From Phoronis australis (Eukaryota > Animalia > Phoronida), in NCBI GenBank assembly GCA_002633005.1, contig NMRA01000071.1:306197-370196 (forward strand): a DNA stretch of 64,000 bases, written 5' to 3'. The notes under the pieces were generated by a model. It was not told the origin of the DNA. It made no database searches and saw only the letters and a list, made by a program, of their open reading frames with translations. The number at the start of each line of letters is the position of its first letter. Within the stretch, counting starts at the first letter, position 1. Both the position numbers and the translations under genes were made by a program. Of the stretch, positions 1 through 62,608 are shown piece by piece.

Positions 1-1641
1 TTGCTACGGGCATAGAATACAGGGTTTACAGAACATCGACCTCGGGAAACATCGGAATAGGAAAACGTCAGTTCTGGGTTATATCGGTCCCGGGACATTG
101 GGTCTTTTATAACCGCTGGAAATCTGAGTTCATTTTCAAATAAACCAGAGCCAAGCCGGTATACTCTTTCATTTAGGACTGTCGCTGTTCTTTGAAGTGG
201 TGCGCACGCGTGAGTTCACGCACTTGAATCGCTGGAGTAGGCCTACACTTTACGTTGGCGTGTGAAAGACAAATCATATTTCGCGCACGTAGCGCCAGAA
301 ACAAGTAAAGGGTTGAGAATTTCTTGGCAACTGAAAGTAAAGACGTGACCGTCATTAATAAGGTTGTCATTTTCACTTTAGCTGTCTTAATCCGATAAAA
401 GGCAGAAGCACATCTCAGTCTAAGTCACGATTGTCTGCGGTAGGAAGATTTCAACCTAGCCTCCTAGTGTCTTCAGTGTGAGAGCCAATCGAATTGGAGA
501 GGCTTTCATGTGTCAAAAAGCGGGACATTTTGATAGTGTGGCAGGAAGACGAACAAACTTTCAGTAAGGCGAGTAAGGACTTTTTAAGTGATAATTTTAG
601 GAGTAAAATGTATTTGACGGGGTGAAAACCTCTTATTCGGTAACCGGATTTACTATTCAGCCTACCCGCCTACTGCCTGGCACTCGTCACTGCCTGTTTA
701 AAACACACACATTATGAACTTGGTACGGAAAGTAATGGTCCACAACAGAATAAAGCTAGATAATAATTCCATGGATACTGCATGTAAAATTGAATACCTC
801 GCCAATCGTGGCATCGGGCGGTGTTTCAATTTCCTGTTTTTCTTTTGGAGTTTTCACCCAAACTTTAATCGTTTCAGCTGATTCAGAGTCGGCCATATTG
901 GTTTATATAGATGGTACTACAAAAAACGTAAATTTTAAATTAAATTGACAATTTACAAGAAACTATGTTAATTTCAAGTTAAAAAATTCAAATATTCGTC
1001 TAAAACCGTCTTGGAATAGAGGTATAATTTATATTTTAACTATTTTTTCATTTTACATTGTTTGGTTTATAGGATAGCCTTCTATACATATAGTGCTGCG
1101 TCATCCATTTATAGACCCTATTCACGCCGACAGGTAGCGCGTTCCAAAACGAGGCTTACGATAGCTCTGGTGGCTTAGTTAGCGTAGTTGTACTCCGCGT
1201 TGCACGAAAACTGAAGGAGCTAGAAAAAAATACGGACACTCAACTGTCTGTTTTAGAATCCTTATGGATGTTGGGATTCGGAAGCGTTGGGTCCTTGCGA
1301 CGAAGGAAAATATGTCCGTGTAAAATTTATAACTGTTTTCGAATCATACTGAACTTNGGGGGGGGGGGGCAAAATACATAAAAAAAACAAGTGAAATGGA
1401 TCTGTTGACTAGAAAAATATGTTACAAAGTGACTAAAAATATTCTATGTAGAAAATAAACTACCATATGAAAAAGTAACAATCACAAAACATAAGAACTA
1501 ACACCAATTAACAACAAGGTAGCATAGTAGGAGTTTAATAAACATATAACAGAACTGAACAGACCTACCCGCGCGAACGAGCATCCCTGGAACAGTCTTC
1601 CAATTTTGAGCGAAATGTAAATTTAATGTAAATAGTGACTA

Positions 1642-3361
1642 CTATGCTACTAATCCCAGATCTAAAGACGGTCTATAGAGACGCTGAGCATTCCGAGTAG
1701 TCTGCTGAGCCACCGGAATGTTACGATATTTGGCAACTACTTCAGCGACTTCTCCAATAAACTGTGGGTAGTTAGGTCGCTCGCGCAAGCACAGGTAGTG
1801 AGGCGAATCAGTCTCCAACAGAAGACGGTCTTCGGGCACCTCCCGTAACGCTTGGACGTGCCAGCAGGTAAAGGTGTTACAACTACCAGAGAACCCGAAG
1901 TAGCAATTCGGGAACTCACGGTGGAAGTTACTCACTGCCACGGAATCGCCGGTGAAGGTATGAAGATGGATTATCTGGGATATAGCTGCTCTCTAAGAAT
2001 GTCGAAAGCAGTGTGCAAGCCCCACTCATAATTTGAGCCTGGTGGCGCTGCCCTGATGTGAAGAACCACCACCTTGTCCCGAACACTCTTATGACGACGT
2101 CCAAGGCTGGCGAACTCCGAAATCAGACCTTCCACAAACCGGCGCTGATGTTTTTCCTTTCCCAAAGCTTGTTCAAATCCGATCTCCCCCAGACCGGCAA
2201 CTTCAGGTTCCCGCAAAAGACGGAAAAAGGTAATCCTAGCATTACCCGAAAAGCTGGACTCCTGTTTCGGATGCACACCAATGACTGCCTTGAACCCCGG
2301 GGAAGAGCTCTTAGGTACTCCTTAAGTGGATGACGGGAGTACACCGCCCAACGGCTTGATTGGATGGGATGGTATTCTGCGAAGCTTAGTCGCTAAAAGG
2401 TCCAAGACGGGCAGCAGAATACTTCCACAGACGTTACCTCTGGACCGATAAGCCGATGTTAGGCGGTCCATATCAAAATGCGAGTCGACTGCCCCTTCCA
2501 AGGTGGGGGTTGAAGATGTAGTAGGTGCCGAGGATGGCACACTGGCAGGTTGAGGAAACTGAAAAGGTTCCGATGATGATGACGGAACTACGAGCCTCTG
2601 AGAGCTGGTTGGCGACAGCATAGGTCCGGGTGGAAGTTCACACGGTCCATCATCAAAAGATAGTGCCCACACAGAGCGGTTCGGCTCGGGGATTCTCGCC
2701 ATCAACTGCAACACTACGAAACAGTGCATGCAGAGACCCAGGTTGACCACCCTCCCACAGAAAACTAAAGGGCCTGAAGGCATAGGCCACCCCAGGACTT
2801 TGCAGGAGATCATTACATGAAGTTCGTCTTCCACGGTTACAGGAGGAACGTGGAGCGCGCTTCTCATTGCCAGGCCAGCAAGGTCCAGAAGATCTTCATA
2901 AAGCTGAAGTTTCCTTCCCCTAATTTGCAAGAAAAGGGATCGACTTCAGTGCCTGAAACCGTGCACACTGAAAAGTGGAGGATGACAAGCGCTGGACGGG
3001 GTCAACCTTGAACACTGACGGTAGGTGGTTTTTCAAGTTGTGCTCACGTACAATCGTACCCTTGGCGACGAAACCACAGAGGGGACAAGCGAACCTCCCT
3101 CTTTCAAGGTTCCCTTTTTTAGGAACTGGCCTGGTTGGTTCGTGAACGTACACGGGACATCACTGGAATGATCGCATGGAGTGACATCTTTTGACACGGC
3201 AGGGGTGCCAGAAGAATCACTCACATCCATAGGTTCCGAGGATATAGGTGTCTCATTAGACACAGGAAGATCCTGCACGTCACGGGAGCCCTCGGAGAAG
3301 TTCACCCGCGGAAGGTCCGGGTTGGTGTTTAGTCGGACATCCGTACAAGAGATAACAATTT
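1642..3361 (-). pseudogene. Transposon-borne extra ORF (frameshifted): Ser/Pro-rich N-terminus, CxxC...HxxxxH Zn-finger-like segment, TatD-family DNase domain
   Basis: TatD motifs occur in the expected order across frameshifted ORFs: AVDSHFDMDRL (~2490), (G)MHPK (2276), VAGLGEIGFE, VVLHIR, IHLHTFTGD (~1970-1945), YFGFSG, VPEDRLLLETDSPHY, NYPQFIGEVA. Upstream is CPLCGF...EHNLKNHLP (2920-3153 ORF). Confidence 0.85.
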
Positions 3362-3379
3362 CTGCAACAAAAAGGAAAG

Positions 3380-3727
3380 TTAAGGCTTGCACCGAGGACA
3401 CCAGTAATCATCCATATCGCGTGCATCATCAGCCGCGATACTAACACATTTCCCATGAAACTAATCGTCACAAGAGTCACACTGGATCATGAGGCCACCA
3501 TGGTCGGGCTGACGACACACACAATACAACTGATCAGCAGTGTCGGGAGTCTGGTTAACTACGTTAACTATTCGTTGCAGCCAAACAGGAAGGTCAGCAT
3601 GACGAGTTTTACACAGTTTAATACAATTATGGTAAGTAACTGAGACAGTATTCTTCACACGAACTCTGTACAGGGGAGGTGTTAGAACTTCTATAACAAT
3701 ACCAGGTCTCCTGCAGGGAGACGACAC
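3380..3727 (-). mobile_element. Gypsy-type integrase C-terminus (GPY/F-like region) fused to a C4HC3 PHD finger; end of pol
   Basis: Translation SSPCRRPGIVIEVLTPPLYRVR...YHNCIKLC, then LYCVCRQPDHGGLMIQCDSCDD*FHGKCVSI...YWCPRCKP-stop. The internal TAG (3461-3463) falls where PHD fingers have a conserved Trp; the terminal TAA is at 3380-3382. Confidence 0.85.
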
Positions 3728-6700
3728 ACGCCCTTAGTTGAAGCAGTGTCTATGTAGCTGGATGCAAGTACATTGATTTCATGAATAAACTTCTTGATAA
3801 GGGATTTGCAGAAAAGGTTCCGATTATTGAGCTTGAGCTGGAAAACGGTTTCGTAAACTATATACCCCATCATGGCATATTTCATGCCAAGAAGCCTAAA
3901 AATTTAGAGTACTTTTTGATTGCAGCGCCAAGTTTCTAGAAGTATCCCTCAACGATCATTTATTATCTGGACCTTAATCTGACAAACACTTTAATTGGTT
4001 TCTCTGTCGTTTTAGACAAGACAGGGTAGCCCTCATATGCGATATTGAAGCAATGTTCCATCACTTTCACGTAGACGAGAAACATAAAAACTTCCTTAGG
4101 TTTTTGTGGTGGGAGCATGGTAATATAGATTTTGAACCCTGTGAGTATCGTATGACAATGCATCTGTTCGGGGCCACCTCTTCCCCAGGACGTGCGAACT
4201 TTGGGTTCAAATTTAATACCTCCAAATATGAATGTGAATTTGGTCCCGACGCCGTAAAATTTGTTCACAGAAATTTTTATGTGGACGACGTACTCGTGAA
4301 AGTGCCGACACAAGGAAGCGGTTACTTTGATTGAAAACACCAAGCTCTATGCGCTAAAGGTGGATTAAGATTGCACAAGTTTATGCCCAACTCTAAAACA
4401 ATGATGGAGTCACTTGATCCTCAGATATCTGAGCTTGATCCTAATGATCACTCACGTCAACTAAATGATGTGGATCTCTTGCACGATAGTCTTCCACTGG
4501 AAAAAGCATTCGGCGTGCATTGGTGTGTTGAATCGGACACTTTCCAATTTAGAATTACTCTGCAAGATAAGGCACTTTCCAGACGAGATATTTTAGCCAT
4601 TGTACCTTCTGTGTATGACCCCTTAGGTTTACTTGCTCCTGTCGTTTTACGAGGGAAGCAAATCTTGCAACAACTCTGTAGTGATCATGTAGACTAGGAT
4701 TGTTCCCTTCCAGAAGGTGTGAGGGCTCAGTGGGAACTATGGAGAAATCGTCTTCAAGAGTTAGAGAGTTTGAAAATCGAAAGGTGTTATAAACCACAGG
4801 CTTTAGGTGACATTTTGTCTGTTCAATTACATAGTTTCTCTGATGCTTGTAATGTTGGCTATGAGGAATGTTCCTACCTCCGTCTGAAGAATTCACTGTG
4901 CCTTAGTTATGGTCAAAAGTAGAGTTGTGCCTTTACGACCAGTTACGGTACCCGGATTGACAGCCGCTGTAGTAGCAGTTACAATCAGTTCGATTCTAGT
5001 GAAAGACTTAGAGTACGACAACATCAAGGACTTTTTCTGGACAGATAGTCAGATTACACTTGGTTACATCCAGAACGACGCCAAACGGTTCAAAGTATTT
5101 GTTGGCAATCGTGTCCAGCAAATACGGGAACACAGTGATCCCTACCAATGGAGGCACGTTAGCACAACCGAAAACCCGTCCGATTTGGCCTCAAGAAGTA
5201 TCGATTCCAGTAGTTTTGTTGGTCGTTCTGAATGGCTTTCAGGCCTTAGTTTTTTATGGAATGATGAATTTCTCTCGCATGATTTTGACATTTCAGATGT
5301 GCATCTCTCTGACGATGACCCTGAAGTTAAATGAGTGAAATCATTAGCGACTCAGTTCCCGCAGTTTATTGAGTCTGGTCGATTAGAAAGGTCTTCTGAT
5401 TGGTTCTGAGCCAGAAGAGCTATTGCCAATTGTATGAAGCTCAAGTCTAGACTGAGAAATCGCTCGAGTAATGCTAATGTTGACATGTCTGTTACAGTGC
5501 AAGATCTTCAAACGGCCGAAGTTGAAATTATCAAATCGGTCCAGAGAAATACTTTTGAAGCAGATGTTTCTACTCTTTTAAGCTCTACTGACCGAGCGTT
5601 AAAGAGATCTAGTCCGCTACTATCGTAGTACCCATTCTTAGATGCAGATGGCGTTCTGGTCGAATTAAACGTGCTAAGATGTCACGTGAGTTCAAGCACC
5701 CTGTGATTTTGCCACGTACGCATCATGTTACCCAATTGCTTATTAAAGATTTTCATGAACAACTTCAGCACCAAGGTCGTGGTTAAACTACTAATGAAAT
5801 ACGATCCAACAGTTATTGGATTATTGGCTTTAGTACTGCTGTTTCACACTTAATACATAATTGCGTTACATGCAGAAAGCTCAGATCTACCACTTGCGTA
5901 CAGAAGATGGCTGATTTGCCCGATGACAAATTAGAGCCCTCGACACCTTTTGCATATTGTGGAGTTGATTATTTTGACCCTTGGTATGTTAAGAGTGCTC
6001 GTAAGTCAGTTAAACGTTGGGCTTGTGTTTTCGTATGTATGTCGTCGAAAGCTATCCATATTGAACTATGCAATGATCTTACTACTGATTGCTTCATCAA
6101 TGCATTTAGACGTTTTTCGGCGTTGAGAGGCCCAGTTCGACTTTTGCGTTCCGACCAAGGAACCAATTTTATTGGCGCTCTAAATGAGCTTAAGACTGCG
6201 ATTAACGAACTTGATATTGATCAGATTAAGCACTGTCTATTGAGGAAGGGTTGCGACTATACTGTTTTTATGATGAATGTACCTCATGCCAGCCACATGG
6301 GCGGCATGTGGGAGATACAGATTCGTACCATTAGATGTGTACTGTGCTCCATGTTAGATCAAAGTAGCTCTCAGTTAAATGATGAATCACTGAGAACTTT
6401 GATGTATGAAGTAACTTCGATTGTCAACAGTCGACCTCTGTCGGTTGATAATCTTGATGACCCATTAATTGTCCTTAGAGCCCCTCACTCCAAACCATCT
6501 CTTGACATTGAAATCTAAAGTTTTGATGTCGCTTCCTGGCGCATTTGAGTCAGCCGATATGTACTCCAGAAAGATGTGGAGGCGAGTGCAACATTTAACA
6601 GAACTGATGTGTTTTGGTCTCGATGGAAATCCGAGTATTTGTCGAGTCTCCAAAAGAGACAAAAATGGACCAAACCAACGACTAATGTTAAGATTGGTGA

Positions 6701-7391
6701 TAGTTAAGTATGATAACTTGCCAGAGTTTGTGATGCTAATCTTAGTAAGGATGGTTTAGATCGCTCTGCTAGACTGACTGTTGGTGACCTCGATTGAATG
6801 CCAAGGGCAGGCGCAGCCTACTAATGGCGTTAAATTGATTGAGCGTCCAGTGCATAAGTTGATTATTTTGATCATTGTGACATTCACTGGCAGAATAGTG
6901 ACGTAGTTAATTTCTCGCACATGTAAGTTATGATATACCATATCGATTTGTATTGTATTGATTCTTGATTATATCTGCTTGATTTGTATAATTAAAATAA
7001 GTTAAACTTATTTTGAGGGGCGCTGTGAATGAAGTTAGCTCCGCCTACTGCGCATTGTGCTATGAGTTCTGTGAATACTAATTTGTTTAGGCCTGACAGA
7101 GTGCGCTCAGGTCGCTGAGACCGAGCCCGGGTTATACGGCATGTTCAGGCACTCTTGCAAATATTGTCACACTGGTCAGATGCGTTCTAGTCACTGTGCG
7201 AGTCTCAAGACATCATTATGGTAACATTTACTGTCATTTGCCGTTTTTCTTGCAATTGCGTTCTATTTTGCGAATTATGTGTCCGTGAAAAGTTACTGAA
7301 TATTTTGCGTCTTCCACTAATTTCACCGGACGGACGGACAGACACACATGTCATTTGTAATGCGTTGCGAAATAAAGCGTACCGTGTAACA
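3728..7391 (+). mobile_element. Degenerate BEL/Pao LTR retrotransposon, 5'-deleted (RT, RNase H/peptidase A17 region, integrase, 3' LTR)
   Basis: Motifs YIPHHGIF, SLNDHLLSGP, DIEAMFHHF, NFYVDD, SVYDPLG, LHSFSDAC, WTDSQI, ENPSDLASR, GVDYFDPW, SDQGTNF and HMGGMWE, with many stops and frameshifts. Purine tract ttttgaggggcgc precedes TGT at 7024. Confidence 0.93.
7024..7391 (+). repeat. 3' LTR of the BEL/Pao element
   Basis: Starts TGTGA just after the purine tract, has AATAAA near 7372, and ends TAACA at 7391, where the minus-strand Gypsy integrase frame resumes. Confidence 0.65.
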
Positions 7392-7445
7392 TGTTGTTTG
7401 ACTCGCATGCAGCTACAGTCTAAGATAAACACCAGATTGCCTGCC
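7392..7445 (-). mobile_element. Short Gypsy integrase segment left between the BEL and Kolobok insertions
   Basis: Reads (K)AGNLVFILDCSCMRVK, matching the GDxVxxL segment that lies between the YDL motif and the GPY/F region of Gypsy integrases. Confidence 0.65.
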
Positions 7446-8602
7446 TTAAAGGAGCATGCCACCCAAAAAACAACCTAATTTGTATCAATTTAGAACGAGT
7501 AGTTCTCCTCGATAGCGGTACGTACGGTTGCGTTACCTGACACCTGACGGCAGACGGAGGTGATGAAATTTTCCACTGACGTCATCGGTTTCACACGCAG
7601 TCTGTTCAGCAGTTCACAACACGGGTAACTGGTGTCAGCTTATCGCTTGAATTCATTGTTTAACACCAATAAATGATCAAACTTCGATGTAAAACCCTTA
7701 AAAATACACCGAGTTCTTATAAAAACGTGTTGTTTTATTTCACTGTTACGGATTTATTGGTATTTGGACACACCGTAGCCAACAAATTTCGGCAGTCCAA
7801 TTTACCAAGGTCCGTAGCAGGAGTTCGTGTTCTGTTCGGAGATAAATTCTAAGCATTTTTCCGTGAAATACAGACAGTAGGACCTAGATCTGTGTTGTTT
7901 AGACTTGTGTTTTTTAGTTCTAAACACAAAAAACGCTTGTTATCCCGGCCAGTGTCTCGGAACCCGATCAGGCCCGTCGCGGCCGGACTGACTCGTTATC
8001 CCGGCCAGTGGCTCGGAACCCAATCAGGCCCGTCGCGACCGGACTGAAGACATCACAAACATTAACCAGCCAAAGTTGGAAACTAAGCTTGAAGTCAAGA
8101 AAATACTATACTAGTGAGCTAAAGAAGTAATGTGCACGTGATTATTTTGGTGAAGCCACGAAACTGCAAATCTACTAAGGCCGATCGTCGGGGGCCGTGA
8201 ATTCAGGTTCCCGTTTGGCCACAGAACCGCCAGGGCAGAAGTTGTACACTGACAATCATTATTTGAATAATGTATAAGTAAATAAAGATTCCCCTAACAC
8301 CTGGCCGTGGGATGGAATATCGAGTAATTGTTTCACAACAGATTCTGTCAGCGAACACTGAATTAGCTTGCGCTCACACGGCCTCGGTGTCCGGTCAAAT
8401 TAGTTTTATTGCACCTGAAGCCGGTAACGCAGTGATTTATTCATTGCTGGCTTCTCAAATCATTTGCACTCACGAACACTCCACAGGCATTACAAATTGC
8501 ATCTAATGGGACACACTTTCTATCAGTTTTATATATAAGTATTGGTTAGGGTGAGAATAATACATTTTGAAACAGAACGCTTACTGAGTACTAAACGTCA
8601 AC

Positions 8603-8825
8603 ATGGACACTCGCAATCCCGACTTGGAGGAGTACTCATCTGACGAAGACTTCCCAGGTAGATCGTTAGTTTTCTCAGGATATCAGTTCGAACCAGCTAG
8701 AGTACACTGATCAAGAAGTATTAGAGAGGCGCCGTGAACGTGCACAAACAATGGAGCACATGGATAGTTCGGAAAACCGTCTCATGGTATCAGTGCGCTA
8801 ACTGCACCATAATGGAAACAACTGA
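8603..8825 (+). pseudogene. N-terminal remnant of the Kolobok accessory protein KolX (P2X7-ballast-like Cys-rich family)
   Basis: MDTRNPDLEEYSSDEDF...GYQFEP followed by SWYQCANCTIMET resembles the (P)YxFEP...WCxCxxCxxM signature; truncated by the internal deletion. Confidence 0.6.
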
Positions 8826-8921
8826 TCCACGTTTCTTTGCTTCCTGCCAGCCGAACGCAAACACACTAGGCACAGCATCTGATTTCAGCCTCGGTTGCTT
8901 TTTCTGCCCTGGTATGAGCTG

Positions 8922-9149
8922 TTAGGCAAGACGGAATTTGTCAGTGAAATCACTGTCCACGAAATGTCGGCCACAGACACGGAGATGTTTCACGGCCTCG
9001 TACTTGGTATGAACTCCGTACTTGTCCTTTTTCACTGCCGCGAGCCACTTCCGAAGCATTCCGGGCTCTCGAGGAAATCGAAAAAACGATGTACCCGCTT
9101 TCCTCGCCGCTTCATAGTTCGAACAGGCAGGAACGACACACCACACCAT
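8922..9149 (-). pseudogene. THAP Zn-finger N-terminus of the Kolobok transposase (catalytic domain deleted)
   Basis: MVWCVVPACSN...FFRFPRE...RKWLAAV...LRVCGRHFVDSDF is a complete C2CH THAP signature. Confidence 0.9.
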
Positions 9150-9325
9150 GGCGGAATTCACTCTGCATACGAACCACTGACGTCGCTGCGGACTTTCTCA
9201 CCTTCCTCACAGGCTAACGCGACACCTCTCGGCAAGGTAAGGTCGACCGTGTACGAGCCGATGTGGCCCCAGACCGATTAAGACGGTAAAAAAGACTAAT
9301 TAAATCGGGTGGCATTAGCCTTTAA

Positions 9326-9774
9326 GAACACGTCAGTTTAAAAACAGATAGGTCATAAAGATTGATTAGTTTGTAGAACACTACGTGCAGTTTCATGTGC
9401 CTTTGAAATAGCAGCACAAAGTTTAACTACATACCCCGACGGACAGTCAATGTCAGCACCGAACGGTGAGTGACGTCACGACCCAACATCATCATATTTG
9501 GTGTTAAACCTGTATGGCGATTTACTGACGAACGGATCGCGCTAGCGATTTGAGGAATGTATAGATCCCATTCCGTCTGAAAAGTATTCACACAGCATCT
9601 TACCGCATCCATAAGGGTTCTATTGTAACGTTCAACTTGACCATTTGCAGAGGGTCTATACGGAGTTGTACGTGCCTTGTGGATGTGCAAAAGTTCACAT
9701 ACAGCACGGAATAAATTGCTTTCGAAATTTTTCCCTTGATCAGAGAAAATCTGGAAGGGATATCCAACATTCAC
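9326..9774 (-). mobile_element. Gypsy-type integrase catalytic core and helical region (5' part of the element missing)
   Basis: GYPFQIFSDQGKNFES...KARTTPYRPSANGQVERYNRTL...TGLTPNMMMLGR; after a frameshift YVVKLCAAISKAHETARSVL...YDL. Confidence 0.92.
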
Positions 9775-10040
9775 AACAATTAATTAAACACACGACACTT
9801 TTCTCTGAGTCCTTATTGCCAATAAGGACAGTCTTTATTCCGTTCCGTTCGTATGCTCGGAATAAAACTCTACACTCAACGGTACATTGGTGAAGTAACT
9901 GACCAAAAAATAAAAGGTAGGCCTACACGATATTTTGAAACATACTTGTTTCATTTTCAAGTGGAAATAAAATGACGCGGTAATGCCACCACAGAGCATA
10001 AGCTGGAGACATACACCGTGCAATGGGACGCGGCAGGTGT

Positions 10041-10927
10041 TGTAATGTTCTGCGTTGGACAGACAAAATCATCAAGTCCGAGTTTGACGGGATGATTTTA
10101 TTTACAAATTTCACTTGGAACGTCAGTGAAAACTTGTGAGAACCGTGTGAGAACTGTAAATCTATGAAAATACACAGAATACTCTAAATACATGGCAATA
10201 TTATATAAAACCGAATCTAAATTAAATTATTAACAATAGTCACTCTAAGAAACTAGTCAAAATTACTCAAATCTAACTGAATCGGTATATGAACTTTAAA
10301 TCACATTTACAAAACAACTTTTATCTTAAAACATATTATATCCTAGAACATTTCATAGCTCATAAACTCTAATGAGACTTACAGAAATTGCTCCCTTTGA
10401 TCTTATCCACGCATGAACATCCAATTCTTGTTTAAAACACTCCTTGAAACTCTACAGACTCAGTGATCTGCCTAAAATACTTGATTCTCCAAAGTTACTG
10501 AGCTTCCTCGTCTCCTAACTTTTTTCTTTTGAGAATGATGCTTATGTTTGCTCCAGAAATATTTATACTCTAAGATATGACTAAACATCACAATCACGGA
10601 CACTGGTCAAGGCATAAGTACATCGGTGTGGGTGTTTCTTAGAATCAACCCACTTAAAGTTGACCACTCCAAAACATATTTTGATGATCATATCCTGTTT
10701 GTCAGAACAACACTGAGAACTTAGCAGAACTAAAGCTTTTCTGAAGAAATTGCGCAATACTCAAGTTTACCACAACAAGTTGTTCACAATAACAAGTCCT
10801 GTTCTAAAATATTTGTGACTTTCAAAATAGTTAACTGATATTAATTAACACAATTGTTCATAAATTTAATCATCGATTTATAATAAATCGTTACATAATT
10901 CTAACATTGTTCATCAAAAATGTTACA
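10041..10927. mobile_element. Probable solo LTR (887 bp)
   Basis: TGTAA...TTACA termini flanked by the 5-bp direct repeat GGTGT (10036-10040, 10928-10932); no coding capacity seen. Confidence 0.65.
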
Positions 10928-10935
10928 GGTGTCAC

Positions 10936-11021
10936 CATGGGCGGCGCACCATAGGGGGCTGGGGGGGGGGGCTATATGGGGGGCTATAGCCCCCACTTTT
11001 TTCAGTGCTGCGCCGCCCATG
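10936..11021. mobile_element. MITE with 13-bp TIR; related copies at ~12517-12660
   Basis: CATGGGCGGCGCA...TGCGCCGCCCATG, flanked by GTCAC on both sides. Confidence 0.7.
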
Positions 11022-11765
11022 GTCACTTACTTTACTGACTTATGTTGCTTGAGTGTAGAGTTTTATTCCGAGCATACGAACGGAACGGAACAAAGACTGT
11101 CAATAACGAAAAGTGTCGTGTGTTTAATCAATTTTGCATATCGAAAAACTTGCTCCTGAACTACAGCCAGTCAACCACGTGACTAATATGCCAACTGATC
11201 AGTAAAGGTTACTTTTCCAGATAGGCACGAACAAAACAATTGAAATTGTGCCCCATATGTCCATACCTAATGAATGAGGACCTTTTAATGGTTTAAAATA
11301 TGGCTGGGTCATTTTGAAAATTTATTTTATAGGCTTACCTCGTTTGGAAATTCAGGTAGGCCCTACTGAAGTCTCTTACCACTCACCTATAGATTTGTGC
11401 CCGGCCATACCTGTAACTGTAATTGCGCTCTAATTTGAAAATACCATGAAAATACCAGTCTAACCAGATTATATTCGGTCCTCCGGCCTATTGTTACCCT
11501 AGTCTGCCAAGTTCAGTGAAAATCATGCCACGGGAGGGACTCGTGATTGCCATGGCGACAGCATCATCCATCCCAATTTTACAACTCAGATCAAAATCAG
11601 TGGTTTAAATGAGACTCCAAATCCTCCCGATCCGCTCAAGGGGAATCCTCACCATCCCCAATACAATGACATCCCCTTTCTCCCTCTCCCTCTAACGATG
11701 TAGCAAAGAGATGTACCTTCTACACAATATTAGTACCGGTACTGCCACTAGATAGCCCCTGTCCT

Positions 11766-14124: not shown

Positions 14125-15885
14125 GTATATTAGACAGTGACCACCGTCTCTAGTTATGTGAGCTGAGGGTGGGTGAATGTTGATAACTTCATGTGAAGTG
14201 AGGGATTTGTTGTTTTTAGCTTGCCCTCACGCTCAGGCTCAGAAGTATGTATCTAGTTTTTTGAAAATTGACTCAGTGTTGGGGGTTTTGGTTGTTTTTT
14301 TAGTTGTGCGGTTTTTCAGAAAAGAAAAACTACTTGAGGTGAGCAAAAATGATGCATCATTTTTTACCTCTCGCTTGTCAAATTGTGGCATTTTAATGCT
14401 TATGTTGTGTTCGTAGAACCAGTAAAACAACACAGATGAGAGTAAAATAAAATACGTCTACTCACTTGAAGAACTACTGTAATACAAGAAGGGGACGAGC
14501 ACGTGGCCTGTGGGCATAAATACCACGTGACTATATTCTAAGGAAAACCACAAGTAACATTGCCAATACACAACAGCTTGCTTACTGCTAGCTTGTTTAG
14601 GTATTTTGTGTAACTTTTAAAAACATGAAACTTTTTCTGAAAATGAAATTGATACAAGTAGATGCTTTGGTCAAAACGAGTCGACGTAAAGACCCGAACC
14701 AACTTTCCTTTGTTTGTATTTTCATATACTTGCAACTATGTGGGTCTGTCTGTGTGTCTGTTTTCTTGAGAGAGTTGTATGAATGGTACAGGGATGACCA
14801 ATGACAAAAAACAGGAACATTTCCCAGGTGATGTATTCTTCCACAAATAAATAGGCTTGAGTTATGGAAATATTTTTTGTGTTGGAACATTTAAGTGAAA
14901 TGTAACGGGAATCGGTTGAGCAACCAGCACCAATGTACTTGGTATCTAAAATGTCGACTTTACGTAGCCGATAAAAATATTTGCTGCGTTGTGTAGTTTT
15001 TCACTCGTTCGAATCGCATATGAGAGAACCATGATGACAACTTATAGAGAGTGAAACAATTAAGAGAGAAGAAGCTAAATATACTGAGTTTATTAAGCAA
15101 TATGAAATACAAATCTACAAACTTACAACTCATCGCTAACTTCTGTCGACATCGCAGCTTTGACTTATAATCTTATGAATTTACAAACAAGAAGATTACA
15201 CCAAAAAACATTAAAAGTCCATATTTGAAAGGCCTAAACAGTTAGTTTGTTTGATTGGGATTCCTTGCGAATAGAGTCGAGACCCGGCAGAATCCAGAGT
15301 GTGAGCGTGAGGGGCCCATTTTTACAGGCGTATTCACACCGCGAATGTTCCAAACTGCGCTAAAATAGGTACTTACGTTAAACGTAAAAACGAATCAAAA
15401 TGCAAAGTGAAAATTTCGTCATCAGAAATACCAAATAAGGAATTGACCATCTTACATTCCTTTAAAATCCACTCTAGCTTCAACTTAACTCACGACTCCA
15501 TCACACTAATAAATGAATAAAGTGAAATAGCGATAAAAAAGAAAAAAAAAAGAGGATACATCTGGAAATAAAATAAGAGGAAATTGATGCCAAAAAAGAA
15601 GAAATCCTCTTAAAAGAGGATAATTCCAAGCCCTGGGGTGGACCTTTCCGTGTGTCTTCTTTTCCGCCATGTGTTTTGTTCAGAGATCTGTATGAGTGGT
15701 GAACCTGTTGGTGANTGTTCACCACTTGGCGGCGCTAGTAGTAGCGGTAACAGCGAACTCACAAGTGAACTCTTCTATACTACTACACTCCTTGATTTCA
15801 TCATATGTTCTGTTGACAGAGCTGTGTGAAGGGTGAGCCTGTCTGTGTGTCTTCATTTCAACATGTGTTCATTGAATCTTTCCAG

Positions 15886-16664
15886 ACCCCAAGAAGCCTT
15901 CAGGACAAACAGATAGTTTACGTGGTTATGATTATGCTGATGATGGCAATGTGGTGCACTATGATCACTGGGGTGACGCACGCTCCAACAACATTGAACT
16001 AGTGTTAGAAGAAAACAGACGCCTCAAACCAGCTCGCTTGGAGCTGTTTAAGCTCGTAGTGGAATTCTTAGAAAGACTCAAGGTCCCCTACTTCATATCT
16101 GATGGTACTGCACTTGCAGTGTACAGGGACGAGGGAGTAATGATACCACATGACTATGACACTGATATTGGTGTAATGGAAGAACACTTCATGGTGATTG
16201 AGAACCACTTGGACCTTCTTCCTGGTTATGTAAGAGTTCGTGACTTTGATAATCACACCAACATGCACTGGTTACATGATGATGGAACTGAAATATTATT
16301 TGAAGGATTTGGCTCAAAAACATTTGCGTTTAAAGACGCACGTGATTATAAACACTTGGCTTTGGAACAAGGTCATTATAAACTCACTGTAAGTGTTGAT
16401 GTGTTCACATGGCGGTCATGTGACAGTGGTAATACCCTTGCAGTAAATTATGCTTCACCGTTGTTGGACATGAGTAAAATGAGGTTTCCAAAAGAAGTTA
16501 TTTTCCCAACGAATTTGTTTGAAGGAATGAAGGTGCAGGGTCCACATGACCTTCAAAGATATCTGGAGATTAATTATGGATATATTGGCAAGGATGCTGA
16601 GTGGGATAGTGTCAGTCAGAGATATGTCAAAAGAATGAGCTGTAAACTGGCAGAATGTGAATAA
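15886..16664 (+). CDS. LicD/fukutin-family nucleotidyltransferase-fold protein, main exon
   Basis: YFISDGTALAVYRDEGVMIPHDYDTDIG (GTxLGAxR...IPWDxDxD-like), VDVF and GPHDLQRYLEINYG. Acceptor ctttccag ends at 15885, the frame is open to TAA at 16664, and AATAAA is at 16747. Confidence 0.88.
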
Positions 16665-17029: not shown

Positions 17030-17490
17030 AGATAGTCTGACCACATATGGTTAAAAAAATGATTTCTGACCAGGGATGGGAGTTAGACTGAAGGTGACGT
17101 CATAATGTGGTTAACTAAATTATCTCCACATCGCACATGGTTAAGAACCTGATTCATGGCAGGGCAGGGGAGTTAGACTCGTGGTGACGGCGTGTGGTTA
17201 ACTAAAATATCTCCACATCACATATAGTTAAGAAACTGATTGATGACGGGAGGGAGGTTAGACTCATGATGATGTCATCATGTGATTAACTAAAAGATTT
17301 TCACGCCAGGTTAAGAATCTTGATTTATGATGGGAGGGAGGTTAGACTCATGGTGACATCATCATGTGATTAACTAAAATATCTTCACATCACATATGGT
17401 TAAGAAACTGATTTATGACGGGGAGGGAGGTTTAACTCATGGTTACGTCATCATGTTGTTAACTAAAATATCTCCACATCACATATGGTT
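17030..17490. repeat. Minisatellite, ~75-80-bp unit, ~6 copies
   Basis: Recurrent gggagttagactc...taactaaaatatctccacatcacatatggttaa. Confidence 0.85.
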
Positions 17491-17492
17491 AA

Positions 17493-18085
17493 AGGAGAAT
17501 ATCACCCGATTTAATTAGTCTTTTTTACCGTCTTACTCGGTCTATATTCACATCGGCTCTTGTGTGGTCGACCTCACCTTGCCGAGAGGTGTCGCGTTAA
17601 CCTATGAGTAAGGTGAGAAACGACGCAGCGACGTCAGTGGTTCGTCTGCAGAGTAACTGCCGCTATATTACGGTGCATCGTTCCCGCGTGTCCGAACTAT
17701 GAAGCTGCGAAGAAAGCGGGTATATCGTTTTTTTCGACTTCCTCGAGAGCCCGAAATGTTTAGGAAGTGGCTCGTGGTAGTGAACAGAATATGAGGTACC
17801 CTGTAAGTATGAGGTCGTGAAACATCTCCGTGTCTGTGGTCAGCATTTCGTCAACAGTGATCCTAACCAAAGCTTAGGCCTATATAAAACTGAAACGAAG
17901 TCTGTCTCATTAGATACAATTCGTAATGCCTTTGCAGTGTTCGTGAGTGCAATTGTTGAGATGCCAGCAATGAATAAACCACTACGTTACCCGGCTTTTG
18001 ATGCCGGCAATAAAGGTAACTGACCGGCCATGTGAGCGCATTGTTTGCTGACAGAAAGCTGTTGAGAAACAATTACTCGATTTCA
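17493..18085 (+). mobile_element. Second, more deleted copy of the THAP-bearing Kolobok family
   Basis: TTAA followed by AGGAGAATATCACCCGATTTAATTAG. Sequence is the reverse-complement homologue of ~8940-9321 and then ~8315-8535; decayed THAP (KHLRVCGQHF). The other terminus is not found. Confidence 0.85.
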
Positions 18086-27800: not shown

Positions 27801-29321
27801 GGCAAAACTAGTGGGCCTTACAGAAAGACATTACGCATTTTGATAATTCTCCAAACCACCCTTCGTCTTTGAGGAAATTTTCGTTATTTTAAATGCGTTT
27901 TGCCGCCAGTCCATCGATCTGTCTTAATACACCCGTTGTTGCTGTTTCCAATGTTGTTCCAAAAGCAATCCTTTCAGAACTATCCAGATTGAAGCCAACA
28001 GTTACAAGTATCTTCGCTTTGCTAGCAAATGTTGCTTGAGTTTTGGGTATCGTGTATCACTGTTAGTACGTACTGGAGTAAAATCCTACACAAAAACTGG
28101 GCTTTTGTGTCGCTCATGCCTCAGTGTCTTCCGAGTGTCGATATACGCGCACTAGATAGACCTGTGTACGAACTATGAGCAGATTTAACATCTAACTTCG
28201 CCAAAAAATTGGCATAGTAAGGCCTAATAACTGAGTGAAATTGCAACCGAAAGTTTGTCGTTCGCCCGCAATATGGAGTCTCCAACCATTCGTGAGCTGT
28301 CACAGCCACATAGTCTACGGGCTTCATGCAACATTGACGGGGAGTTTTCATTCCGTACATTCGTGAAAGAACTGGAAACACATTTTTATACGTTGATGAA
28401 AGTTATTTGATATATTTCTTATTTTTAAAGTTGCAATTCACCCTGTGTAGTTAGCTAAAAAAGTTAAAAAAGACATTAATTCTCAAAAACGGTCTCCTAA
28501 TGTTCCTTATCGTCAGGTACTCAAGAAAACGCTTCACAGTTTAGTACGGTTGGCCAATCCTAAATTTGTGGATTGGAAAATTGTGTATGAACGCAATGCC
28601 GGTGATTTGATCGAGTTGCCGACTCTTTCGCTGAAAATTCAAGATCAGATGAGCGTGTTTGTGTTGTGAAACACCACTATGCTTGTTAAAATTACGTTAC
28701 TGAACACTGTCGAAATGCAGGTTTATATAGTACAAAGAAAATCTCCCTGAAAATTACAATTATAATGCTAGTCCAACTAAAAATGAAACAACATAGTCAA
28801 ACACTTATTCGCATTATTGCCATATTTTTTTACTCAAATGAAACTAAGTCTACGAAGTAGTTGAATAGCTTACGTCGCTGTCAAATCAAAGTCGCCTAAG
28901 GTAGAAGTTTCGGCTTCTGTTAAAGCGGAAGATTCCATTTATAATATGTATGGGGGGATAAGCCTGACCGGGCTGCGCTATGATAAAACGTCTCATAAAT
29001 ACCTAAATGGTATTTTATCGTAGGACAACCGTACTTGGTGCTCAAAGATAACATATACTTGGTCTGACAATGTATCTAAGTTTAGCTGTGTAAATTTAGG
29101 GTTGCTGAACCAACAAAAGAGCGTTTCCCCTCAGGCAAAATAAGACGACCCAAAGTTAAATAGCCATGGCGCGCGCTTTCCTGGACACTGTTGCGCTAAA
29201 TAACTGCGTCAAAGGTAGCTAAAACATCGTGTTTGGAATTTTTTAATATAATTGTATTTTTATAGTAACCTGCGCTTAACTGATAAGAATTCGATCATTG
29301 ATTATTTTTCTATTAGGCGAT

Positions 29322-29691
29322 ATGAGGCGATCGGGTGAAGCGGTAGTGGTATATCTGCTGGTGTTCAGTTTATCGTCGTTGACGGCAGGAAGAAAGGCGA
29401 AATATTCGCTTGGACTAAGTTCACATACAGAGCGCGCAGCCCTGTCATGCCCGCCATGTAAAGAAATTCACTGTACCCCCAAAAAGGCGAGCAAACTGAA
29501 ATGTAAGGGGGGTATCACACACGGTGTGTGTGACTGCTGTCCGGTTTGCGCCAAGTTGGAAGGAGAGCCGTGTGGCGGCGAGTGGAACTACTTGGGAAAG
29601 TGTGACACAGGACTTTACTGTGAGGCACAGAAGAACCCCAATCCGTATGGACCAAAAAATGAAGACGTGCTGGTAGGCAAGTGCAAAACAA
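29322..29691 (+). CDS. Secreted IGFBP(IB)-domain protein, exon 1 (signal peptide + IB domain)
   Basis: Hydrophobic VVVYLLVFSLSSLTAG, then a 12-Cys IB domain with GVCDCCPVCAKLEGEPCGG...GKCDTGLYC; donor A|gtgagt in phase 1. Confidence 0.9.
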
Positions 29692-32517
29692 GTGAGTCAG
29701 TTTGGAATCTTATACTCGAAATTGTCATCTACCTAAGTCAAATCACAGTCACTGATCTTACCATGGTCCATCCTGCTAAGTGGTGTTGTCTTAAAAAATA
29801 GACAAAAAAAGAGACACAGAGGTAAATACTATTATTGAGAAATATAAAAAGCCTGTTTTTTATGTTAAAATGAAGCAACATGAATTTCTCTTAAATTTAG
29901 CCCACAATTTGACCCAAAGTGGAGTTTTACTAAGTGTAGCTTTCCCTCCCTTGAAAAATATAAGAAAACAAACTTTGCCTGCCCTTATTTCCCCTTTATC
30001 TTGCCCCAAAAAATTCCTGGGCAAAATACTAAGCATTTGCCATCTATACAAATCAGGCATGTTGCTGGGCTTGAGCCTGAAACAACAAGCTAACATGGTT
30101 CATTGGTAACTGAACATGTTATTTACCTATGCTACTAATATTCAGCTTTAAAAACAGTGTGTTTAAAATGATGGAAACATTGGGTAAATTTGGGACAAAA
30201 CACTGCTTGTAATGAAAATTTAAAGGTACTGCTTCAAATTAAATTAATACAAATAGGCTAATCAAAATTATTGATTTCTGTATTGAGACCTCACATGTAC
30301 AATTAAAACAGGTTGTTTCCTGGTTTACAGAGGGGAAACATATCCTATGAGGCACAGCTAATCATTGTTCTTGATCTCAGAAGGCATGGTTCTGACCACA
30401 CACATTATACCCAAACTACCTCCTTGGGTTAGAGATTAGAGGCCAAATATTTGTACTGTGATGAATAAAACAATATGAAGGCTGATATATGAGATAACCC
30501 TTGATAAATGGCACCATGTTTGTAACTAGCATCTCTCATAGCCTTCACAGATAGTGTGTGTTTACTAGACCCTTGGCAAGCTCTCATTGCAATACTGTCA
30601 CCAGATACAATACTGTCACCAGATACAATACTAAAGTTAAGCTTCACAAACAACTGGCATTCACATTTGAGGTTTGTAATTAAATGTCCTTTAAATCAAA
30701 TGATTTTCTTAGGAATCACCATAGTCGCACTTGTAAAATATCAAAGAGAAAATAAATAATTACAGAAAGCCTTCAACATGTGACTTGAATGTCTTTTATA
30801 TAAATAATAAACTCATTTCATAAAACACATCATCATCTCTACCATATTCTCATAGACCATGTTATACTAATGATAAGTGATTTATGTGGTCTCTCATTCA
30901 GACTGTCACCCCTCCTCCACACTCCTATTTCTTTCTAGACAACACATGTTCTGTTAAACTACCATAATCAAATTTAATTTGAACAGAAAATTAAGAACAA
31001 TAGGTGTGAATGACTACAAGCCCCAGGCTTCACATGTCATCATCCACAACACAGGCTTACAGAAGTGCACTGCAGGGCCAGAGGTACTCTCCATCAACTG
31101 TACAAGGAGGCTTGTCAATCACCTTAAATGGAATGTGTACTAGTGACAAACAGATAGATTCCTGCAGGCCAAGTTTACCAACTCTCACAAAGGTGTGAAA
31201 CACTTCTTGACAAGCGTTTAACATGCTGCCATTGTTCTTTTTTATTCTGTTTAAACGCACTCTGGACTCCCATCATACTCATTTATATCCTATAGTCTAC
31301 AAACATGCACACAACAATGTGGTCATTATCTACCTGACTTAGTGACATAGCTTTCTCTTACAACTTCCCTTAACAGATTTAACAAGTACGAAAACAGTAA
31401 TCATGACAATAATAAAATAACTATGAATAAATTAAAAACATGTCTTGCAAAACAACTGGACCCCTTTAGTGGCATGTTCTGTTATGACCATCTTGCAACT
31501 CAGTGAAATTCACAACATTTTTAGACTTTATAATAATTTATAAAATTATTTATTTGAGTGACAGTTGGTAATGGTACTTGTTACCCTACAAACATGTGAC
31601 TATGCAGCAGTAATTAGTCAACAACAAGTGTTGTTTATTAGCCTGAATGTTACTCTTCACTGTATCTAACACTTGTCCTACCTGTCAATGACACCACTAC
31701 ACTGTGACAATAGTTTGTTTACAGAGTGCATTAGACTGAGCCCTACTTGCATAGGCTCAACAGTCTACTCTTATAAACTATTGTTTCCCAATATTTTGTC
31801 TGGTATGCCACTACATAATGCTATCATCAGAAGGCTACAGCTCACTGTTGGTCAGTCTTGTGTTATGGTCACACAAACCTTTTGACAACACAATGTGCTA
31901 TTGAGAGGTACTACCTGTACAATGTGCTATTGAGAGGTACTACCTGTCTTGGCTACAGTAGGTCTGCCCCCCAGGCTCTATTCCTATGAATGGACTGACT
32001 ATTAGTTGTTTGGTATTAATTTACACTTTCTGCTTTCAATAGGTTGTAGACAACAGATAACAATAGAGTATAATTAAGCATGTAGATTTAATCTCCAAGT
32101 ATGACTTTCATTACTATAAAGACTAGTTTTTGCAAGGCCTGAGGCTCACTGCCAACTGGTTGCTCCTTCAAAAGCACCAAATAAATAGCTACTTAGAATA
32201 AAACAACAACAAAATCATTATTTGTCTTTTTGTTTATGTACAAACTTTGATGAAAATCAAGCCCATAAACATTGCACAGTGTCACTTTCAAAAGAATTCA
32301 TAAAGTTTTCTATTTATAAATTCTTTTTCCTTGCCATGTCCTCACTGGTGGACTGTATAAATGGCTACTCAATCTTCTGCTTGGTGCAGTTCAGCACAAG
32401 TGATAATCATTACAGATTGTCATCTGTTATCTCTAGAGTTACAAAAGAAATCCTGTAAAGGTCTGTGTTCATATATTAACATTATAATGTCTGGGCTGTC
32501 CACTGTATCACTGACCA

Positions 32518-61106: not shown

Positions 61107-61994
61107 CTGAAACACGTAATAAATACTCAAGGAACAAAAGTTACAAAGCATGCCACTTGAGCCTACTCACCAGTGTGAAGTAAGGGTTAAGTTAAGGGAG
61201 CACAGACCTGCATAGCAGTCAATGACTGTGGTGTAATTGTACGTGAAATACAACTCTACTTGTAAGGTTTGAACAGAGTTATAGTTTTATGACAACCCTA
61301 AGGTGTCTTCTGACATCCCTAGTGTGTCTGTCCTATGACACCTCTACAGTCTGTCTGATGACACGCCAACAGTGTACCTTTTGACACCCCTACAGTGTGT
61401 CTTATGGCTGCTCTACAGTGTGTTTGATGACACCCCTACAGTGTATATTTGACACCCCTTCAGTGTATATTTGACACCCTTACAGTGCGACTTATGATAC
61501 CCATGCAGTGTGTCTTTTGATACCTGTGCAGTGTCATGCCTTGTTAGTCTCAATTTTACAGTCTTCAGTGGCAAGTCTCAGAGTCAATCTGCAGACCCCT
61601 TGAAGCACAGGCGTCCACAAAATCAGACAATTTAATAATCCTTGATGTGGCTTTATGTTTTACAGTAACTTTTGTCATTTATGCTATGACATAGGTATAC
61701 CACAAACCTTCAAAAAAAACAAACAAGAGTAGATCACCTCCAGCACACCCCCAGCAGGTAGCAATAGACCAGTCCAGCACACCCCCAGCAGGCAGCAGTA
61801 GACCAGTTCAGCACACCCCCAGCAGGTAGCAATATACCAATCTAGCTTTAGCACATAATATAAGGACATATGACAGAGGGCACGCAACTCCATTATCCAG
61901 GAAATCCGAACAAAACTCCCATTTTGCCCAACATGCCACAAACCCCTCGAGAGACACCAATAGAATAACCATAGTTAGCCAACTTGTCACTCAC

Positions 61995-62144
61995 TAGGGT
62001 ACAGGTACACCTGCTGAGAGGATCCATGGACATCAAACTGGACAACAGGGTTAAAAGGTCATCACTGGCTGCTGTGAAAATCTGGTGAAGAGGTGTACCT
62101 GGGAACTCTTTGAACTTGACATAGTCAGGTAGGTGGACCATACC
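61995..62144 (-). CDS. CDK7: CDK7 exon (kinase subdomains X-XI)
   Basis: GMVHLPDYVKFKEFPGTPLHQIFTAASDDLL...DPLSRCTC; 150 nt with cag / gtgagt boundaries. Confidence 0.95.
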
Positions 62145-62608
62145 CTGTGAAAAAGAGGGAATGGTGTTATATGAAGTGTAGGTAATTACCCAGCTGGGTT
62201 CTTATACAAAGGAATCTATTAAATGAAGTTCAAGGTTTCCATGAAACAGGAAAAGTTTTGACTAACGAACATTGCATTCAATTTCTATCGTATTAAGAAA
62301 TATTTGTCGGCATATTACGAAAAAAACATCAATACAGGAAATGTTTTTGTAACAGAATTGATACAGAGCAAACCTTAACATCATTTGTCTAATTTAAAAT
62401 AACTGTTAAATATACATCTGAGGTTACTTGATTATTTTTACAGACATACCAAGAAAACATTAGCTCTTGTGTCCAATTTGTTAGTCATGAATAGTTTATG
62501 TTGTAACGTGTATAACACTAATACATTATGATGTATCGTGTATAACATTAATACAAAGAATAATGCTCCATGTCTACAGGTACAGTACTATCACTTAAGT
62601 GTAGTTAC

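Follow-up and report, generated by a model that had tools for sequence, protein, structure and literature searches.

A TatD nuclease gene in the env position of a decayed Ty3/Gypsy retrotransposon of Phoronis australis and of its intact relatives

Why would a TatD nuclease gene lie directly downstream of the integrase of a long terminal repeat (LTR) retrotransposon? The question is raised by a 64,000-nucleotide stretch of the phoronid Phoronis australis (contig NMRA01000071.1, positions 306,197 to 370,196; hereafter the window), in which the minus strand of 1642-9765 runs from an integrase core through a GPY/F-type region and a PHD finger to the pol stop, past which lies a broken third open reading frame (ORF3) with a TatD end. 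What remains here is the 3′ half of a decayed, dead copy of a Ty3/Gypsy LTR retrotransposon. An earlier reading made from the letters alone (the sequence-only reading) had proposed this order of domains on the minus strand, which is borne out by tblastn to an intact relative termed L001 and by Pfam, and had taken them for a Gypsy-type element with an integrase-PHD fusion whose env position is occupied by a TatD ORF, an interpretation supported by colinearity with L001. We regard the Gypsy-type gag-pol-ORF3(TatD) architecture as practically certain. Overall, we favor, at a probability of roughly 0.55, a Gypsy element with a spliced, TATDN2-derived ORF3 nuclease that would remove R-loop RNA in the nucleus.

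The architecture is displayed by intact relatives, which were sought by a pattern scan of Joint Genome Institute (JGI) metagenome contigs with five TatD relatives. This gave three loci from 219 pattern matches, of which two (L001 and L003) allowed the pol context to be judged, the third (L002) being too short at 1.1 kb. The gag-pol-ORF3(TatD) layout is found in both contigs long enough to judge (2/2), with gag-pol directly upstream of TatD, and these are intact copies of the kind that the sequence-only reading had proposed to look for. L001 (11.4 kb) codes for gag, a 1457-codon pol with protease (PR), reverse transcriptase (RT), RNase H, integrase and a PHD finger, and a 1081-codon ORF3 with TatD at its end; L003 codes for gag, a pol with PR, RT, RNase H and integrase and without a PHD, and a 733-codon ORF3 with TatD. 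Since the two are only 58% identical in RT-RNase H and 29% identical in TatD, the layout is old. The Integrase_p58_C (GPY/F-type) profile matches at E 2.2e-5 in L003 and at E 0.0035 in L001, both under the cut-off, and the PHD at the end of the L001 pol is recognized by PF00628 (E 4.4e-9), with CXXC1, BPTF, PHF2 and DIDO1 as its nearest solved relatives. The PHD fingers of these proteins read H3K4me3, and a PHD of the CXXC1/BPTF/PHF2 type may, by analogy, fit a targeting of the integrase to active chromatin. Such targeting cannot account for ORF3 in every member because L003 has TatD without PHD, and the idea of PHD and TatD as joint equipment therefore holds for L001 and the window but fails for L003. 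On the 3′ side of ORF3, L001 has a polypurine tract (PPT), a TG-starting 247-bp LTR-like segment (10066-10312), a TGG-starting site resembling a primer-binding site and then 63-bp repeats as before gag; this suggests a contig collapsed across the LTR. Paired LTRs or a target duplication were seen neither in L001, which has one LTR-like segment, nor in the window.

The window copy follows the same plan. The 3′ two-thirds of its Gypsy integrase catalytic core and the following helix (9362-9765, minus strand, as are all parts of this copy), 5′-truncated and with a frame change near 9436, match L001 pol residues 1164-1305 (tblastn E 4.8e-44; 65% identity over the first 110 residues). A short pol segment between two insertions (AGNLVFIL, 7423-7445) matches VGDLILML of L001. 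The integrase C-terminal GPY/F-type region (3532-3752) aligns to the L001 and L003 pols where Pfam Integrase_p58_C matches, and is followed by the PHD finger at the pol C-terminus (3378-3531), with an internal stop at 3463-3461 and the pol stop at 3380-3378; window 3730-3386, spanning both, matches L001 pol residues 1341-1452 at 38% identity. As the pieces flanking the insertions match consecutive stretches of the L001 pol (1164-1305, then 1341-1452), the window pol is colinear with that of its intact relative.

Past the pol stop lie a polypyrimidine tract and CAG (3362-3377), the predicted splice acceptor of ORF3; an N-terminal, low-complexity part of ORF3 whose basic cluster directly precedes the zinc site (3091-3361, from the translation and the family pattern); a C2H2-type zinc/helical domain (CxxC..H...HLP, 2670-3090), split by a frame change near 2945; and a class II (HxH) TatD nuclease domain (1642-2513; motifs DSHFD, GEIG, LHIR, HLH and ETDSP; stop at 1644-1642). 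The first half of the zinc domain (3090-2938) is recognized by a family profile at E 7.9e-5; the second half is weak (2.9 bits, equalled in 2/300 shuffles). The TatD domain (2513-1675) matches L001 ORF3 residues 801-1075 and keeps 6/7 active-site residues. It is broken by a stop at 2324-2322 and by frame changes near 2340-2300 and 1985, ORF3 overall having at least three, so that of the second ORF with a CxxC..H segment and TatD claimed by the sequence-only reading the domains stand and the open frame does not. Pfam confirms TatD_DNase on two frame pieces (E 4.5e-15 and 3.2e-6), with PHD and rve remaining below the cut-off on the broken pieces. As judged by indels among contigs and by read depth, other copies share the 3′ untranslated part of the element (1376-1641). 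A tblastn search of the window with two intact pol/gag queries found no gag, RT, PPT or LTR of the element itself, in line with the earlier view of a dead copy without gag and RT; an assembly N at 1357 lies just beyond the 3′ end.

Further copies in P. australis were viewed through read contigs from four DNA runs (two samples, one study). Of the contigs over the zinc-domain region, one differs from the window copy at a single position and two differ at 22 in 280 bases; of those over the TatD end, one differs at a single position and another at 39 in about 300 bases. Contigs differing this much from the window copy indicate a few diverged copies in the species, so the possibility raised earlier that TatD is a single-copy host pseudogene is not borne out. 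In run X1, the depth summed across 1600-3600 reaches 100-230, where unique contigs have 20-33; this is not a copy number. A third-codon bias in the TatD read differences (9/15, p ~0.03, among the differences listed; 40/303, three near a frame change dropped) is too weak to use.

A profile search of 1.84 billion representatives recovered 511 proteins at E ≤1e-30, the best 150 of which were examined and form a large, diverged family with a median pairwise identity of 34%. Among 58 long members, Pfam finds TatD in all and RT or integrase in none, and ORF3 is thus a separate gene. The family shows the HxH, Glu, His, His and Glu-x-Asp active site of class II TatD enzymes, as defined in PMC10085689. 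All seven metal/catalytic residues are kept in 107/119 complete TatD domains (31 dropped for gaps), a share biased upward by selection on the score of a profile built from intact domains; the other 12/119 have active-site substitutions, some at several sites. On these patterns of conservation, the ORF3 nuclease is very probably selected and active. Four proteins (P0015, P0016, P0036 and P0088) have several active-site substitutions, and P0015 also has the zinc domain twice; these may be a pseudo-enzyme branch or domesticated copies.

Ahead of TatD, the C2H2-type/helical domain is present in 87/150 family members and in 78/84 of those with at least 430 residues, 25 of these having seeded its profile. 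Its C6, C11, H21 and H25 are invariant in 61/61 aligned rows. The predicted structure is confident, with a local distance difference score (pLDDT) of 95 and a template-modeling score (pTM) of 0.89, and was matched by Foldseek to nothing in PDB or BFVD at E 0.001, the best VIA Z being 3.1 among 48,161 chains; the absence of a structural match to this model does not prove a new fold. In the ESM Atlas, nothing was returned at ≥0.9 for the zinc domain, and only TatD clusters for the nuclease. L001 and L003 also have tandem repeats, of 63 bp in the leader before gag and of about 107 bp (L001) or 56-69 bp (L003) in the pol-ORF3 interval (L001:1-292, 6166-6375 and 11112-11370; L003:5714-5880), which may be candidate binding sites for the zinc domain.

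An organism is named for 9 of the 25 clusters looked up: six sea urchin, two bivalve and one brachiopod, with sea urchins supplying the closest named TatD relatives of the window copy. One cluster from the bivalve Mya arenaria comprises 13 gene models on 11 contigs, seven of them full-length at 97-99.9% identity with motifs intact, and such near-copies suggest, from their sequences, a recently multiplying element. Five scans of viral contigs returned no such element (four, among them those with RT and integrase, were empty, and one gave 20 ordinary TatD loci without pol or zinc domain). A scan of bacterial and archaeal genomes gave a single weak match, and a word-indexed search with a 207-residue middle piece gave none.

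How, then, is ORF3 made, and where does its product act? The top-ranked acceptor-like site, first of 125 candidates in L001, of 107 in L003 and of 39 in the window (YAG sites in 1400-3752), lies 34, 27 and 16 nt past the pol stop, respectively, with a rough chance of such a position per element of 0.006, 0.007 and 0.025 on a score devised ad hoc after the L001 site had been seen. In retroviruses and env-bearing Gypsy elements, env is made by splicing. Since the best acceptor-like site adjoins the pol stop in 3/3 elements, ORF3 is likely translated, as env is, from a spliced sub-genomic RNA. Membrane or signal-like segments are found in 0/61 full ORF3 proteins, and a motif resembling a nuclear localization signal (NLS) in 46/61 against 22 in shuffles; accordingly, a soluble nuclear protein is likely.

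The origin of the nuclease is likely a capture of the host gene TATDN2, to judge from motifs. The TATDN2-type motif G-x-V-x-x-F-C-x-P, taken from a published TATDN2 alignment (PMC12709183), is found in 82/126 family members; the Cys-to-Glu spacing is 52 in the family versus 55 in human TATDN2, another spacing is 48 versus 49, and NCBI labels two sea-urchin family proteins 'putative TATDN2'. With host TATDN2 (PMC10711561, PMC12709183, PMC10085689), ORF3 further shares a long disordered N-terminus with NLS-like signals and a C-terminal class II TatD. Unlike it, ORF3 is multi-copy and element-borne and has the C2H2/helical domain, and where published TATDN2 orthologues, those of sea urchin and octopus among them, have GCHPH and HRHC (PMC12709183), it displays G[IVLF]HP[KR] and HLHC. 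No host TATDN2 protein was returned by any of our protein searches, the one aimed at TATDN2 giving three ORF3-type and six bacterial proteins. A quick tree of 64 of 163 rows, built without host TATDN1/2/3, places 54 rows including L001 in a well-supported main clade apart from the six bacterial rows.

Human TATDN2 degrades the RNA of R-loops and needs for this conserved Glu residues, which are also conserved in the ORF3 family, and a disordered N-terminus for binding; its activity is minimal on plain RNA:DNA duplex and little on DNA (PMC10711561). Fish Tatdn2 is expressed in germ cells (PMC12709183). Given a selected, active nuclease, an R-loop or RNA on chromatin is, by analogy with TATDN2, its somewhat more probable substrate. 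We prefer a nuclear R-loop nuclease because TATDN2 acts on R-loop RNA and the element already has an RNase H, and disfavor a spare RNase H because human TATDN2 barely acts on the plain duplex. In the favored scheme, the enzyme would be anchored on nucleic acid through its disordered N-terminus and zinc/helical domain. It would digest the RNA strand of R-loops, either along the transcription unit of the element itself or at the active-chromatin targets to which an H3K4me3-type PHD might steer the integrase. This clearance could ease transcription or integration and would possibly blunt RNA-guided silencing.

Several observations weigh against this scheme. In two RNA runs, of which 18-19% was read, depth over TatD reaches at most 5.8, in reads that differ from the window copy, and no splice joint was seen at that depth; in run X5 the first mate is always of the minus strand, which would be antisense under the usual stranded protocol, and run X6 is mixed. 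For proteins other than the ORF3s of L001 and L003, membership in elements is judged from common domains and the copy pattern. The L003-type TatDs (three proteins) are without the F-C-x-P cysteine and are not joined to the main clade in the quick tree, and the second 'TATDN2-specific' cysteine is present in bacterial TatDs too. To these are added the PHD that is not obligatory in TatD-carrying elements (L003), the post hoc acceptor score, the bias in the active-site count and the 12 substituted domains.

Other roles and origins have to be set against the same evidence. ORF3 might instead be an accessory enzyme acting on DNA. As a 3′-5′ exonuclease or apurinic/apyrimidinic (AP) endonuclease, it could trim or mend the ends of cDNA, eliminate cDNA with damage or uracil-derived abasic sites, or act on the gaps of integration. 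Both AP endonuclease and single-stranded DNA exonuclease activity are described for TATDN1, TATDN3 and the E. coli proteins TatD, YcfH and YjjV (PMC10085689), the family has the class II HxH site with YcfH as its best solved sequence match, and the zinc/helical domain could bind DNA; however, the motifs lean to TATDN2, with little DNase and very weak AP activity, and ORF3, a gene apart from pol, shows nothing that would link it to the particle, leaving this possible though unlikely. Still less likely is a counter-defense nuclease acting off chromatin, which would destroy silencing RNAs, such as piRNA precursors and small RNAs, or immune-sensed nucleic acid. Such a role would suit TatD enzymes that act on single-stranded RNA and hairpins, parasite TatDs that degrade extracellular traps, the rapid divergence outside the TatD and zinc domains and the silencing-related role raised for a rotifer retrotransposon ORF3 (PMC5408684). 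Against it are the enriched NLS-like clusters and, for a secreted version, the missing signal peptide in 61/61 proteins, unless a spliced leader supplies one.

That TatD is a mere passenger, being a host gene or pseudogene adjacent by chance or of no use to the ordinary Gypsy element that carries it, might be argued from the two intact contexts at hand and from public annotation, which takes ORF3 proteins as host genes. We consider it highly improbable in view of the same layout in elements of 58% (RT-RNase H) and 29% (TatD) identity, the kept active sites, the family-specific zinc domain, the positioned acceptor and the dispersed near-identical copies. A DNA transposon of the Ginger1 type, with the PHD as a tail and TatD as cargo, would agree with the window copy, which shows no RT, and with Ginger1 transposases, which combine GPY/F with a Gypsy-like integrase and in a single family also carry a PHD (PMC2836005). 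Yet in the closest intact relative, L001, with 65% core identity and the same PHD and ORF3, a single frame upstream codes for gag, PR, RT and RNase H, and the terminal inverted repeats (TIRs) without RT that would mark such a transposon are not what the intact copies show: RT is present and the TIR architecture is not. This makes a Ginger1-type element scarcely tenable, and both it and the chance neighbor are rejected because intact relatives hold an old gag-pol-ORF3 layout with RT.

Among known systems, the Juno and Vesta elements of bdelloid rotifers, with a DEDDy exonuclease as ORF3, come nearest; they are likewise Gypsy-type with a predicted nuclease ORF in the env position and intact catalytic residues (PMC5408684). 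Their ORF3 is a DEDDy 3′-5′ exonuclease limited to one class of animals, whereas here it is a TIM-barrel TatD with a zinc/helical domain that spans at least echinoderms, bivalves and a brachiopod. Env-bearing Ty3/Gypsy elements (errantiviruses) and retroviruses likewise have a third ORF after pol and an acceptor-like site right past the pol stop. An errantivirus-type env was rejected, as ORF3 lacks a membrane or signal segment and is a soluble TatD enzyme, not a fusogen. Chromoviruses and other elements with reader-fused integrases likewise have a histone-reader module at the integrase C-terminus, and with many PHD/Chromo-transposon fusions reported (10.1101/2021.11.30.470311), the integrase-PHD combination is not new in itself. 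The present elements are not chromoviruses: instead of a chromodomain, a CXXC1/BPTF/PHF2-type PHD is found in only some TatD-carrying elements (L001 and the window), with nothing in its place in L003. Ginger1 has a Gypsy-like integrase and GPY/F with an occasional PHD (PMC2836005), while the relatives here have gag and RT instead and no TIR/OTU/Ulp1 architecture. Apart from these comparisons, the L001 gag (L001:228-1754) starts with a helix-hairpin-helix domain (PF12836, E 1.2e-6), unusual in a Gypsy gag, and the L001 and L003 pols have a common cysteine-rich insert (C...LPCGGCxYCxxAH) between RNase H and integrase.

The window pol is interrupted by two insertions. A non-autonomous DNA transposon with a THAP ORF (7450-9321; THAP domain, Pfam E 3.7e-13), at very high read depth and flanked by a TTAA duplication (7446-7449 and 9322-9325), was placed exactly by the sequence-only reading; we take it to be Kolobok-like from its TTAA, RR..YY and THAP features, no library match being behind the name. 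A second such THAP copy, inverted and diverged, lies at 17489-17991. The other insertion, a BEL/Pao LTR retrotransposon remnant on the plus strand, opposite to the Gypsy copy, with Peptidase_A17 and rve domains (Pfam), occupies 3753-7417 within a perfect 5-bp duplication (3748-3752/7418-7422) rather than 3728-7391 as read earlier, about 25 bp off; the Gypsy segment between the insertions is therefore 7445-7423. It is without a 5′ LTR, and its left 13 bases are an inverted near-copy (12/13) of the right LTR end, so that it resembles an element with inverted ends. A read-contig joint 3536-7417, with 27 letters on the short side and the intervening letters undetermined, was set aside as evidence for an empty site. 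A non-coding element with TIRs (9778-11133) sits where the Gypsy copy is cut off 5′, with no pol match beyond, and a truncated, very high-copy short repeat (1110-1343) borders both the assembly N and the Gypsy copy at its 3′ end. Elsewhere in the window, the plus strand has an uninterrupted 262-codon frame with a LicD-family domain (15876-16661, E 9.8e-8) and an exon-like frame with an IGFBP domain (29280-29798, E 2e-8), and the minus strand has a frame resembling a cyclin-dependent kinase exon (61896-62201), for which Pfam gave no match.

Among the papers listed by full-text searches on TatD with retrotransposons, Gypsy, transposons/integrase, Mya/Steamer and gene-family expansion, no description of a TatD-carrying retrotransposon was found, though a Repbase or Dfam entry may exist. 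A term search of PMC12440569, PMC13524379 (with 7 supplements) and PMC8905726 gave no TatD element, and the TatD passage of PMC6962438 is a Hox-cluster label. The TatD ORF3 lineage is real, widespread and, in the literature covered, apparently undescribed. Many of the gene models that annotations of sea urchins, bivalves and brachiopods label TATDN2 or TatD-like probably belong to transposons, and the family offers hundreds of natural TATDN2 variants together with a zinc/helical domain that is confidently folded in the model and has no structural match. Accessory enzymes are rare in animal retrotransposons and point to host barriers that limit the elements; a widespread, still-multiplying lineage with an intact TATDN2-like nuclease would allow direct tests of whether R-loops matter for the expression, integration or silencing of retrotransposons. 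A bolder possibility, which we advance tentatively and think unlikely as a whole, is that an old animal LTR lineage captured the germline R-loop nuclease TATDN2 and joined it to a new-fold zinc domain that reads DNA of the element (its tandem repeats, perhaps), using it to erase R-loops at its own copies and so shield these from RNA-guided silencing. If true, this would be an element-encoded anti-silencing enzyme in animals.

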